In this document: positions 16,377 through 34,094 of the stretch, piece after piece | Layout: every line of letters begins with the position of its first letter | How positions within the stretch are numbered: the first letter of the stretch is position 1 | Source of the DNA: Eledone cirrhosa | Lineage: Eukaryota | Direction: 5' to 3' | DNA: 64,000 nucleotides | NCBI GenBank assembly: GCA_964016885.1 | Contig: OZ024742.1 | Span: forward strand, 78,368,001 to 78,432,000 | Position numbers and translations under genes: made by a program | Notes under the pieces: generated by a model | The model's input: only the letters and a program-made list of their open reading frames with translations | Told to the model about the DNA's origin: nothing | Database searches by the model: none

Positions 16377-16505
16377 TATATACATATATATATATATATA
16401 TATATATATATATATATACAGAGTGAGAGCGAGAGAGAGAGAGAGAGAGAGAAAGGGATATACATAGATAGATAAATGAATAGATAGGTAGAAAGATAGA
16501 TAGAT

Positions 16506-16821
16506 AAAGTTCTTTATTAGCCACAAGGGCACAAAAGAAGGGGACAAATACAAATGGAGAGTTTACATACAGGTATATGAAAATAAAACTATTAATAAAA
16601 TAACAAATAACAATTGAAATTCCCAATAGGGGGGGGGCGTTACACAGGGGTTGTACACACCCCGAAAAAATGTACAACCCTCATCTCCAGGAGCACCAAG
16701 AGTGAGTACTCCTTCCTCTCTTCCTCTTTTTCCTCAACCTACTGTCTTATATAGAGAGAAGGCCCAACCACTCGGGCCATCTTTGCCACATTCACCCACC
16801 TTTTATAAAATTTGCTGTGGT
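16506..16821 (-). mobile_element. 5'-truncated Tx1 copy E (end of ORF2 plus 3' UTR, copy-B type)
   Basis: Near-identical to the reverse complement of 28016-28332; flanked by (AGAT)n on both sides. Confidence 0.92.
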
Positions 16822-16912
16822 GATAGATAGATAGATAGATAGATAGATAGATAGATAGATAGATAGATAGATAGATAGATAGATAGATAGATAGATGGAC
16901 AGATAGATGGAT
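16822..16912. repeat. (GATA)n microsatellite
   Basis: Directly visible. Confidence 0.95.
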
Positions 16913-17173
16913 AGTATGTCTATGTTATATGTATTCAAGTTTCCCTACGCGTATTTAAGTTGTGATCATGTCACGGATACCTCAACAGCTGTGTAAGCTT
17001 TTTATCATTTATCAGTAATGCTTATTTCCGTGAGTATACCGAGGTTCGAAGTTCATAAATTCTCATAAATAATCTAGATGAATCACTTTCATACGCATAT
17101 ATGTATATATATATATATATATATATGTGTGTGTGTGTGTGTGTGTGTGTGTGTGTGTGTATGTGTATATATG

Positions 17174-18131
17174 TGGTATGTGTATATGCATTTTTTCTTC
17201 TAACTTTAATTTTATACCTAATTGTGTATGGTTGACGGTATATTTAATCGATTTCCACGTGCTATTGAAATGTTGGGTAAATATTCTATAACGGTTGGCC
17301 GCGAATAGATGGCTGTCGTTTATTTATCCACTATTTCTTCATAGGTACCTTTTAATCTAATAGCCTGGTTTAATTGTTTGTTTTTTTTTGTGTGGTTGAT
17401 TATGCTAATTGGGAGAGGAAATGGTTCTATGGACATACTTTATAGTATATTGCTCTGATTATTTAATTTATTAATTCATCATTGAGCCTCATCGTGAATG
17501 GTTGCCAAAACATATATATCTGTGACTTTGTCTAGTTTGTGTATATGTAAATCTTTATATTTGATAATCTCCCATAAGGTTGAGATGCAATTTGGGCAAT
17601 ATTGGGCTGCGCTTTCTAGCAACCAGCCCACTCGTCGTAGGCACCAATCACATTCTTTCTGACTTGACCACTGCCACTTCACAGTTCTTAGCCATTTTGA
17701 ATACGTTTCTGGCGGGGATCATTTAAGAAAAATCTTTGTCCAAGTGAGTTTGTTTCCTGATGAGTTCGAAGCTCGAGAATTTATCCTTGATAGGATATTT
17801 CCGAAAGCGAACGAAACCCTAAGGGTAGAAACGTAATCCTGGTATGTGTATATGCATTTTTTCTTTTAACTTTAATTTTATAACTAATTGTGTATGGTTG
17901 ACGGCTATTTAATCGATTTCCACGTGCTATTGAAATGTTGGGTAAATATTCTATAGCGGTTGACCGCGAATAGATGGCTGTCGTTTATTTATCTACTATT
18001 TCTTCATAGGTGCCTTTTAATCTTATAGCCTGGTTTCATTGTTTTTTTGTGTGATTGATTATGCTAATTGGGAGAGGAAATGGTGTATATATATATTATC
18101 AAATGATTCTATGGACATACTTTATAGTATA
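17174..18131 (+). mobile_element. Partial tandem repeat (666-nt period) containing a hammerhead; retrozyme or PLE pLTR-like
   Basis: 17174-17450 recurs at 17840-18131; hammerhead lies just before the second copy. Confidence 0.75.
17752..17832 (+). ncRNA. Type I hammerhead ribozyme
   Basis: Stem I GTTTC/GAAAC; CTGATGA 17757-63; stem II GTTCG/CGAAC with extended hairpin; GAAA 17813-16; stem III ACCC-TAA-GGGT; GUA cleavage site after 17827. Confidence 0.88.
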
Positions 18132-18185
18132 TATATATATATACTAAAATAACAGATCCTCACTTCGGATTTTAGTCTTCATATT

Positions 18186-30342: not shown

Positions 30343-30362
30343 CTTTTCTCCTTACCACCAAC

Positions 30363-33300
30363 ATAGCTGTGTTGAAAGTAGGGTGTCTAAATGCGCGTGG
30401 CCTGGGCTCACCTTGGAAGCAAGCAATGCTTCCAAATGACCTCAGGTCACGATCTGTAAATGTGATGGTTATCTGCGAGTCCCGGATCAGCAGCGTGCGA
30501 CAGCTGGCCCCCACCTTTGATGACTTTGAGATGCACGCATCTCTCTGTCAGCCCGGAGTTGGGGGTGGGGTTGTCGTTCTGCTGCAAAAACATCTGGGTC
30601 TCGCGACACAGATAGTTCACTTGGACCCAGGGGGTCGACTGGTGGTGCTGGACCTTGGCAGTGGTGAAGGTGGAGCCTTTAGGCTGGTAGCCACATATGC
30701 CCCTTTTGGGACAGAGCGGCCCGACTTCTTCCAACGTCTGGAGTCTTTTCTAGGGACGTCCCGTTCTCTGCTTTTGGTGGGGGACTGGAATGGTATCCTG
30801 GATGCACGTTGGGACTATACAGGGGCATGTCCCAATAGAGAGGGGTTTAATAGCCTCAAGGAGTTACTCGGCCGATTTGACCTGGCTGATAGATTTCGAC
30901 TAGATTTTCCGACTGTGCCAACATGGTCTTGGACAAACCGCAGCAGTCAATCTAGATCGTACCTTGATAGGTTCTTAGTTAGAAAGGACAGGGACTTTTT
31001 AAGTTGTTCAGAAATGCGCATGGTTGGCTATTCAGACCACAAGTTGGTGACCTGCATGGTCAACATTGATAGAACGCATAGACAGGGTCCCGGTTACTGG
31101 AAGCTGAACATGTCCTTACCAGCAAGTAAAGCTTACAGGGACTGGATTAGTACGTTGGTTAAGGAGTGGTTGACTGGAGCGATCGTCAACAGCAGGTGGT
31201 GGGTATCTCTAAAGAGAGAGATTAGATTAGTCTCGATAGAATTTAGTAAGGTTTTAGCTGCGGATAGGAATAGGAAGGAAAGGGAGCTGACAGATAGAGT
31301 AGAAGAGGCAATTAGAAGCAGTGACGTGGCCAGAGTGCTAGCGTCGAGAACGGCTTTGAGCCAGTTTTTCGACGCGAAGCACGAAGGCTGCGTTGTCCGA
31401 AGTAAAATACGTGCTCTAGGAAACGAGGGGACCAAAGCTGTTAGCTGGGCCCACGTGACAGAAGCCAAGAGTGGAATTAAATCCACCATCCGGTCTTTGC
31501 GAGACCAGGATGGACGGGCGATCCTGGAACCTAAGCAGATGTGTGAGGCCTTTCAAAGGCACTTTGCCCGATTGTTCGGAAGCGGCGAGGAGCCAGTTGG
31601 GGAAGTGGACTTCGGTCCATACCTCGACGGCCTGCCGCGTCTTTCGTGCTGAGCCAATGCGGCAAACGCAAATCCACGGGTCTCGATGGTCTTCCATACG
31701 AACTATATCTAGCTATGCCGGACTTGTTCCCCGATCTCCTCGAGGCGGTCTACTGCAACTGGCAACAGAACGAGAGAATTCCCTGTTCTGTGACCAAGGG
31801 CGTAGTCACGCTAGTGAGGAAGAACGAGAACAAGGGGGAAGAAATAAGTAACTTCAGGCCCATAACTCTGCTAAATCCAGAGTTACAGATTTGGGCCAAG
31901 GTGTTAGCAAAGAGGTTGGCGCTGGTCGTGGGCAACCTGGTGGGAGATGCACAGACATGTGCTATCCCGTCCATGTCCATCCACGACAACCTCCACCTCA
32001 TGCGATACATCATAGAGAGGGTTGGGAATGAACCCAGCTTTGGTGGGGCCCTGATCAACTTGGATCAATCTAAGGCGTTTGATAGGGTCGACCATGGTTA
32101 CCTGGATGCGGTGCTAGCAGCGGCAGGCTTCGGGCCCGTTTTCAGGGGCTGGATCACTGCTATGCACAGCAGCCGCATCTGCTCTAGAGTCAATGTGAAC
32201 GGCTACCTCTCGGAGCCGTTCGAAATCGCGCGGTCCATCAGACAAGGGTGCCCTCTCTCCTCCCTTCTGTATGCATTGACTCTCGAGCCCCTACTGCGGA
32301 AGTTGGAGTTGTTGCAGGGCATCCCTTTGGAACCGGGATTGCGGAAAGCGGTGTCGGCCTACGCCGATGACGTGACAGTAATGGTGTCGACGGCCTCCGA
32401 AATCGGGGCGATCGGCACCTTACTGGAGGAGTACGAAAGGTTTACAGGGGCTAAACTGAACCGGGACAAGTCGATCGGTTTGCAACTCGCCACGTGGTGG
32501 GGAAAACCGATGCCCTCCGATGGCGTCGTCGGACGCTGGACGGAGGGCCCGGTGAAGTTGCAGGTAGAGGAGAACTGGAGTGAGGTTACGAACAGGGTGT
32601 TTGCACTGACCCAGAAGTGGGCCAGTTGCAAACTATCCCTGAAAGGTCGGGCGGAGGTAGCGAACGCCTATATAGCGTCCGTCATCTACTACCGCCTGAC
32701 CGTCGTGCCTTGCCCAAGGGAAACTCTCGCCAAGATGGAGCGCGCACTCTTCCAATTCCTTTGTAGGAAGCGGGCTCCTTTGGTGAGGAGATCCATCTGC
32801 TGTCAACACCCTTCGAAAGGAGGGCTGGGGATGCCGTGGCTAATGATGCGTAAACACGCATTAAGGCTACGGCACCTCCACGTATTCCTCACCGGTCAAC
32901 CGGTATGGGCCCCGTCTGTGAGACGTACCTTTCTCAGACTCGTCTCACTCACCGAGCTGCAATCCTGGGTCAAGCAAAGACCGAGAAAACTGGGCGCCTG
33001 GCACACTGAGTGTGCCTAGGCGCTCACGGCCTGCTGGCAGGAGGACCCGGGTATCAGTGGAGACTCCACCTCGACATTCTATAGAGGGCTGGTATGCAGC
33101 AGGTGCGACGACGCCCTCGGAGAAGCCCTAGACATGGAGGAAAACGAACTGGCCAGCCTGTTTGGTAGGACATTCAGCCCGGGACCTATGGACAACTTCC
33201 AGAAGTCCCTGGCCTGGTAGTGCTACCGAGGGGCTCTACCCGTTCGAGAAAAGCTCCACAGATCGGCTATGTCCGAGATGCGTGCGCGACGAGGAAACCG

Positions 33301-33674
33301 TTGCACACTGCTCGGGCATAGCCGATCTGTGGGGCTATGTCGAACGACTGCTGTCACGGGTGGGACCGATCCGGTTGACCACCGAGGCCATTGTAACGAT
33401 TAAGCCGCCTCCCCACTTCAAAAATGAAGGAACGGCGGTGTTTCTGTGCGTAATAGCCATGGTGAAAGAGGTTGTATGGTGGACGCGTCTGAAAAGACTG
33501 AGGTCAGGCACCTTTCTCTCTGGCCAACAACTGATCCGTTTCTTCCGATATCATTTCGGAAGAAGGATCAGGATGGAGAAAGAGGTGTTCCACCCCAGTC
33601 GTTTTTATGAAAGGTGGGTGAAAGTGGCGAGAATGGCCCGTGTGAATGGGCCTTCTCTCTACATCAGACTGTAG
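30363..33674 (+). pseudogene. Tx1 ORF2 of copy C (APE, RT, zf)
   Basis: ORFs 30339-31652 (APE), 31646-33019 (RT: RQGCPLS, AYADD) and 33162-33674. Confidence 0.93.
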
Positions 33675-33935
33675 GTGGAAAAGATGAAGGAACGAGGGAG
33701 CACCCTCTATGCTCCTGAGGAGAAGGGTTGCACACTTTTTTCGGGGGTGTATGCGACCCCCCAAAATGCCTCCTCCCTATTGAGGACTTTATTGTTAATT
33801 TTATATTTGTTATTTGTTTTATATTTGTTATTTATTTTCTTTACTCGCCTTTTTGTGTTAACTCTCCCCCTTGTATTTGTCCCCTTCTTTTGCGCCCTCA
33901 TGGCAATAAATAGAAATATATCTATCTATCTATCT

Positions 33936-34094
33936 GGAAGAAACCGTCGCGCACTCATTTTTACACTGCCCGGGCGTTACCGACCTGTGGGGCTATGTAG
34001 AAAGACTATTGTCGCGGATGGGACCAATCCAGTTGACCACCGAGTCCATTGTCATAATCAAACCGCCACCCTCCTTCAAAAACGAAGGAGAGGT
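33936..34094 (+). mobile_element. Tx1 fragment D (ORF2 zf region)
   Basis: Matches ~27703-27860 of copy B; starts immediately after (ATCT)4. Confidence 0.85.

Follow-up and report, generated by a model that had tools for sequence, protein, structure and literature searches.

Copies and tracts in the window

The stretch of the Eledone cirrhosa genome considered here comprises 64,000 nucleotides of contig OZ024742.1 (assembly GCA_964016885.1, positions 78,368,001 to 78,432,000 of the forward strand; hereafter the window, numbered from its first letter) and carries four copies, B to E, of a group of long interspersed nuclear elements (LINEs) lying against tracts of the tetranucleotide repeat (ATCT)n, as well as one copy, A, of a sister clade. 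The preliminary description of this DNA had proposed that the group targets (ATCT)n microsatellites in one orientation and so builds a head-to-tail array. The features are listed below (ORF, open reading frame; EN, endonuclease; RT, reverse transcriptase; TSD, target-site duplication; UTR, untranslated region).

4140–9853, minus strand: copy A, sister clade, 3'-truncated, outside the B–E array; its family ends in AATAAATGAAATC, then (ATT)n
16460–16506, minus strand: degenerate (ATCT)n tract, 3' flank of copy E, with a pure (AGAT)3 at 16494–16505
16507–16826, minus strand: copy E, a 5'-truncated B-type 3' end, 95% identical to B
16825–16914, minus strand: (ATCT)18+ tract at the 5' junction of E, with (AGAT)18 at 16825–16896
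22553–22572, plus strand: (ATCT)5 upstream of B, target or TSD and in part the element's own 5' letters
22573–28332, plus strand: copy B, a full-length, decayed L1/Tx1-like LINE, with ORF1 remnants at about 22690–24600, an ORF2 from 24759 to about 28066 interrupted by stops and frameshifts, and a 3' UTR ending in AATAAAGAAATT
28333–28352, plus strand: (ATCT)5 separating B and C
28353–33919, plus strand: copy C, full-length, of a diverged subfamily and with broken frames; ORF1 at 29134–30174 with a weak CCHC knuckle, ORF2 with EN from 30363 and RT until about 33674
33920–33935, plus strand: (ATCT)4 separating C and D
33937–34091, plus strand: fragment D, an internal B-type ORF2 piece whose 3' end is absent, 93% identical to B 27704–27858

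All five ATCT/AGAT runs of at least three units in the window adjoin an element, and all of the tracts beside B–E share the ATCT sense of the element that they flank. Much of the preliminary description holds at this level: B, C and D are separated by ATCT repeats in one orientation, and E is bounded on both sides by the same-sense repeat, (AGAT)3 within a degenerate tract on one side and (AGAT)18 on the other. The claimed ending, AATAAA followed by a short spacer and the ATCT repeat with no poly(A), is seen in B and C, which terminate in AATAAA(T)AGAAA plus two nucleotides and then TATCT. Since B and C are 77–78% identical across ORF2 and 69% across ORF1, the array is, as had been argued, not a simple duplication. 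Fragment D, in contrast, had been taken for a simple 5'-truncated copy, and its match to an internal stretch of B only makes it a doubly truncated fragment.

The terminal 20-mer of B, common to several subfamilies, has 3,778 exact matches in the 3.0-Gb genome. Copies B and C give APE, RT and zf-RVT domain matches despite their decay, while young copies of the family have an intact ORF2 that runs 1,172 codons from one stop to the next and encodes APE, RT and a C-terminal CCHC motif, together with an ORF1 of about 630 codons (639 in locus L339; loci are numbered with the prefix L). The intact ORF2 of L149 matches PF03372 (E = 3e-14) and PF00078 (E = 1e-26); PF13966 scores 23.6 bits there, under the cut-off, and 31.4 bits in B, over it. 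This is the organization that defines the L1 group, namely an ORF1 and an ORF2 with APE, RT and a C-terminal CCHC (zf-RVT). In a PDB search with ORF2 the best match was human L1 ORF2p (E = 2e-55, residues 5–857), with R2 at E = 1e-21, which places ORF2 nearer to L1 than to other clades as judged from these two, the only full-length comparators among the matches. The best PDB match of EN was an L1/Tx1L loop chimera, ahead by just 1.5 bits, and no Tx1-named reference was present among 79 homologues or their clusters. A CCHC zinc knuckle in ORF1 is typical of the Tx1 clade; PF00098 scores a weak 18.2 bits in the ORF1 of C against a cut-off of 20.8, and the knuckle of the young-family ORF1 is degenerate. 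A single sequence type making up over 20% of flanks, the measure of target preference applied to Tx1 (PMC4494074; here and below, papers are cited for the portions available), was found on both sides, whereas the targets TATCT, AATAT and ATTAT do not share the pyrimidine-only character of the Kibi and Koshi microsatellites. The B–E group thus belongs to the L1 group and is Tx1-like in its architecture, a candidate member of the Tx1 clade. Intact 1,172-codon ORF2 frames at 98–99% identity (L128, L131, L149, L326, L328, L334 and L343) suggest very recent or current activity.

Insertion at TATCT and the growth of arrays

Genome-wide, 3,099 of the 3,778 terminal 20-mers are followed by three subfamily-specific letters (NNN) and then by TATCT. 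The 5' junctions were assessed on contig C1, in the 100 matches that come first by position; five loci of other families (L101, L147, L169, L174 and L179) and ten without a visible 5' end were dropped beforehand, and 85 were kept, 77 of them truncated. TATCT lies no more than 25 nt upstream of the 5' junction in 44 of the 77 truncated copies, compared with four for the reverse orientation (AGATA) and with a background of 4.3% in 3,033 sequence windows, while ATCTATCT is present there in 35 of the 77 and in reverse orientation in none. The 5' flanks of the truncated copies in this sample are thus not random, and (ATCT)n is, as first proposed, the target in one orientation.

TSDs of about 10–20 bp fix the register of insertion. 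Those with at least three non-repeat letters were found at 14 of the 85 loci (11 TAT-type and three AAT-type), where shuffled pairs gave a mean of 0.65 and a maximum of 3, and most of them begin exactly three letters past AAGAA. Plain TSDs, including pure repeats, were found at 46 of the 85 loci against a shuffle mean of 24.6, an excess that is partly trivial in pure repeats, for which reason weight is placed on the non-repeat TSDs. Unique TSDs that start at TATCT with no extra units were seen at L003, L012, L017, L030, L033, L104, L122, L146 and others, and loci whose best match is of B or of C type give the same TATCT start (L003, L012, L017, L030, L033 and L051). Orientation-specific targeting of (ATCT)n, with insertion at Y/TATCT (Y, pyrimidine), is therefore near certain, and chance is excluded genome-wide as the source of the association. 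Wide insertion without targeting, followed by survival in ATCT-rich regions or by recombination or assembly pile-up there, might be suspected in a microsatellite-rich genome that holds some local duplicates (L242–L245 and L248–L249), but the association is strictly oriented (35 versus 0) and register-exact, TSDs occur at short TATCT sites in unique DNA and the members of the array are subfamilies only 77% identical; the orientation and TSD counts of the 85-locus sample refute this explanation, which retains almost no credence.

The full-length copies L128 and L316 begin with CTATCTATCT-like letters inside non-ATCT TSDs, which shows that the element brings target-like letters of its own at the 5' end; the repeats upstream of B and C are for this reason not independent evidence of targeting. 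At the 3' end, the preliminary description proposed a tail that regenerates its own target; on that reading the element would encode a multi-unit ATCT tail, copied at each insertion. Several ATCT units do follow most 3' ends, a unit-length motif is subfamily-specific (ATCT, ATTT, ATAT, ATGT or ACAT) and hence element-derived, and L155 and L156 have one additional unit ahead of the TSD. On the other hand, unique TSDs usually begin right at TATCT, so that the repeat is mostly duplicated target and not tail, and at targets with TATAT or TATAA in its place the junction takes the letters of the target (L096 and L115). The encoded-tail explanation is largely refuted and appears very improbable: the contribution of the element does not exceed one repeat unit and includes no poly(A), and it is the TSD that regenerates the target.

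Each insertion leaves the target on both sides, where it is reused by later copies, giving rise to arrays such as B–C–D. In agreement with the proposal that repeated insertion stacks different subfamilies head to tail, 21 of the 85 copies have the 3' end of another copy, often of a different subfamily, no more than 200 nt upstream and oriented alike, and at least eight distinct 3' termini precede TATCT. Copy C is 86–92% identical to its nearest relatives and B mostly 90–98%, and from these identities C is likely to be the oldest member of the array, to which B would have been added on the upstream side and D on the downstream side. In one sample, sequenced in three runs, contigs cover the B 3' end in depth and none spans the B–C junction, repeats being skipped.

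In the flanks of 59 A-family loci together with the window (249 kb in all), six of seven (ATCT)4+ runs adjoin an element of the group, four of them in the window. Many GATA microsatellites in the genome may be occupied, the sample being small and biased.

A young AATAT sublineage and an (ATT)n sister clade

A young sublineage, about 99% identical to its ATCT-targeting sisters, ends in ATC followed by AAT instead of TATCT, and its TSDs begin with AATAT in unrelated AT-rich DNA. Six typable copies of this kind occur in the unbiased sample and eight in all, with 134 ATC+AAT ends genome-wide; among 30 inspected, two were AATCT variants. Selection independent of the flank was achieved by searching with a lineage-specific single-nucleotide polymorphism (SNP) about 890 nt upstream of the end. 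All 43 genome-wide matches were inspected: 35, some of them local duplicates, end in AAT. An identity of 97.5% or higher is reached by 36 matches, 35 of them with the AAT end; among the eight without it, identity does not exceed 96.5% in seven, and the eighth (L269/L329), at 99.1%, has TATCT. A SNP of the whole young clade gave 292 matches, the first 30 of which by position have 16 AAT, 13 TATCT and one AATCT end; SNP and flank agree in 13/13 and 10/10, that is, in all 23 scorable copies. In a non-redundant set of 71 young 3' ends, which were collected in part by their flank and so give no genome ratio, the TSDs place insertion at C/TATCTAT (23 TSDs in 25 copies, 23/23) or at Y/AAT(A)T (18/18). 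L338, L340 and L342 were left out of one of the tabulations by a position filter.

In the tree the AAT copies form one tip nested within the TATCT clade, and intact ORF2 frames of 1,172 amino acids are present in both groups, L131, L326 and L328 being examples of the AATAT type and L334 and L343 of the TATCT type. When eight AAT copies are compared with ten sister copies, neither EN nor RT differs at any fixed amino acid; the only fixed differences are ORF1 Q492R and ORF2 D956Y. The young sublineage has thus switched its target to Y/AATAT with no fixed EN change, and the pattern of the Tx1L type, in which target changes accompany EN changes, is not seen in these sequences.

The target could instead be encoded in protein, as in classical Tx1L, the switch resulting from D956Y, from Q492R or from mobilization in trans by the endonuclease of another element. 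D956Y is present in 8/8 and Q492R in 6/6 covered AAT copies, both being absent from the sister set; moreover, Tx1L EN nicks its own target almost exclusively in vitro (PMC1950540) and the available text of Kojima (2015) holds EN to be the main determinant of the target. Neither substitution lies within EN, however: Q492R falls in a low-complexity Pro/Thr/Gln stretch, and D956Y lies beyond the alignment to the L1 thumb, which ends at L1 875. One Y956 copy sits in TATCT (L269/L329) and one D956 event in AATAT (L248/L249), each a single event with mosaic SNPs, and mobilization in trans is countered by the intact ORF2 that AAT copies possess themselves. Nor does the EN hairpin sequence follow the target when A, B, C and the young family are compared: that of A is closer to B than B is to C, though B and C share a target, and C and the young family have TATCT in common at 70% EN identity and with different hairpin loops. 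Targeting encoded in protein is, on balance, unlikely to account for the switch.

A second switched lineage was considered among TATAT-flanked B-type copies and rejected, these copies being scattered on the tree. Copies of the AATAT lineage cluster in AATAT-containing minisatellites (L125–L128 at G000:C1:35.25 Mb and 36.18 Mb, L242–L250 and L277–L280); in one example the unit is about 56 bp and three copies lie within 9 kb. L242–L245 are near chromosome ends, beside TTAGGG-like repeats.

In the sister clade represented by copy A, 1,523 of 1,846 AATAAATGAAATC termini are followed by ATTAT, and ATT lies upstream in about five short copies of 30 inspected, half of which have no visible 5' end. 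ATT targeting by this clade is probable, and less well shown than that of ATCT. The clade consists of several families (L062–L090 and L191–L220; L101 and L169) and tandem stacking occurs here too (L191). ATT-flanked copies with the B terminal 20-mer were rejected as a further switch, the bodies of L101 and L169 being of the A clade. Both the AATAT sublineage and the (ATT)n sister clade go beyond the preliminary description.

Several other features of the window were observed. A tRNA-like short interspersed nuclear element (SINE) head, read by eye, sits immediately after the 3' truncation of copy A (about 4000–4125, minus strand). At 20880–20960 and 21400–21760 there are an inverted repeat around (TA)n and a short repeat, present two to three times and ending in AGAAACAATTATTA, which is a frequent insertion site of A-family elements (L075, L085, L194 and L218). 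An intergenic direct duplication of about 280 bp (17170–17450 and 17850–18130) recurs beside L105, and an unrelated LINE at 46697–49537 (plus strand) has an open frame of 946 codons in which a PHD finger comes after RT, its RT identity being 28%.

Target choice and comparison with known systems

We propose, with a probability of roughly 0.6, that the five-letter target is chosen by pairing between nicked DNA and flank letters at the 3' end of the RNA, and not by EN alone. The sequence AATAAA lies 6–7 nt before the element end and 3' cleavage takes place 10–30 nt past AATAAA, so that the RNA would carry flank letters. EN would make loosely specified nicks in the bottom strand, at (A/T)/purine steps of AT-rich DNA, and reverse transcription would be primed only by nicks whose free 3' end pairs with the several flank letters left in the RNA by processing. 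The base preceding the TSD is a pyrimidine in both lineages, whatever the last letter of the subfamily, which fits a shared loose nick rule. A new copy would thereby inherit the flank of its donor as its target; an ATCT flank would perpetuate itself, building arrays, and the lineage with the new target may go back to an active donor inserted at an AATAT site that was near-cognate.

Several observations weigh against RNA pairing as the determinant. TATCT is missing upstream of 33 of the 77 truncated copies, of which six belong to the AAT lineage and many break within element DNA; a TSD scoring at least 9 was found in only 18 of 36 AAT copies; and microhomology makes the exact nick position ambiguous. 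Targeting could also have been altered by either of the two changes fixed in the AAT lineage, Q492R and D956Y, while the Y956/TATCT and D956/AATAT counter-examples may be recombinants. The scatter of the TATAT-flanked copies on the tree indicates that most off-target insertions founded no lineage, and the isolated endonuclease of Tx1L is highly specific (PMC1950540).

Whether the LINE group is naturally RNA-addressed in a wider sense, the transcript of an active copy capturing about the first five letters of its insertion site to pick the next one, we regard as evenly balanced. If so, specificity would be inherited through the flank and could be switched in a single insertion without protein change, it would be reprogrammable by editing five RNA letters, and it would perhaps constitute a general route to the varied repeat targets among Tx1 lineages. 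A simple APE-type writer with a partly programmable address would follow if RNA pairing sets the site. How site-specific LINEs change target is an open question to which the usual answer is endonuclease evolution; here a switch is seen between groups that have diverged by about 1%, that both retain intact ORF2 frames and that show no fixed EN change, which makes the question directly testable. ATCT specificity alone adds a member to a known class, and the new part is the AATAT switch with unchanged EN. In addition, many GATA microsatellites of a 3-Gb genome would be tied to active elements.

Tx1 families that target (TC)n, (TTC)n, (TTCC)n and (TTTC)n, namely Kibi, Koshi and crocodilian families, resemble the present group as APE-type elements without long terminal repeats (non-LTR) that insert sequence-specifically into microsatellites (PMC4494074, PMC3812793); compared by description, the differences are the (ATCT)n/(GATA)n target, the (ATT)n sister clade and the AATAT offshoot, none of which the available portions give for Tx1, ATCT and ATT being two repeats added to the L1/Tx1-like list. 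No (GATA)n-specific Tx1 element was found in the portions of the literature available, and Repbase, Dfam, Kojima and Fujiwara (2004) and the supplements of PMC4494074 could record one; within the same portions no description of a flank-inherited target switch was found. Expansion of L1-Tx1 in coleoids has been reported with the target unspecified (PMC8967140), as have target changes in R2 (PMC5035012). Microsatellite-specific non-LTR elements of other lineages include Dong (TAA)n, Waldo (ACAY)n, Mino (AC)n and Togen (TG)n (PMC3812793, PMC4640811), which use other repeats except for Dong, whose TAA/ATT repeat is shared with the sister clade.

Closer likenesses concern the role of RNA. Annealing assists initiation by SART1Bm and R1Bm, in which repeat-specific insertion is helped by target-like letters in the 3' region of the RNA (PMC7265360); these belong to the R1 clade and have a single fixed target, and a natural switch with unchanged EN is not described in the available part of that source. 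In LINEs and SINEs of the RTE clade the microsatellite tail correlates with the first TSD base, near-identical elements with different 3' letters have different TSD starts and pairing has been proposed (PMC6007223), as it has been for RTE tails elsewhere (PMC13295347). That system involves one or two bases, non-autonomous SINEs and an encoded tail, in contrast to the five bases, autonomous LINE and absence of a copied tail seen here. Human L1 shares the APE-RT-CCHC ORF2 and TSDs of about 10–20 bp, its priming requires about four matched bases in the snap-velcro manner (PMC3649969), and in both systems the choice of target is likely to be split between a loose nick and pairing of the primer with RNA. 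While L1 pairs with a fixed poly(A) and copies it, no poly(A) is copied here, and the pairing letters would come from the donor flank and would be changeable by descent.

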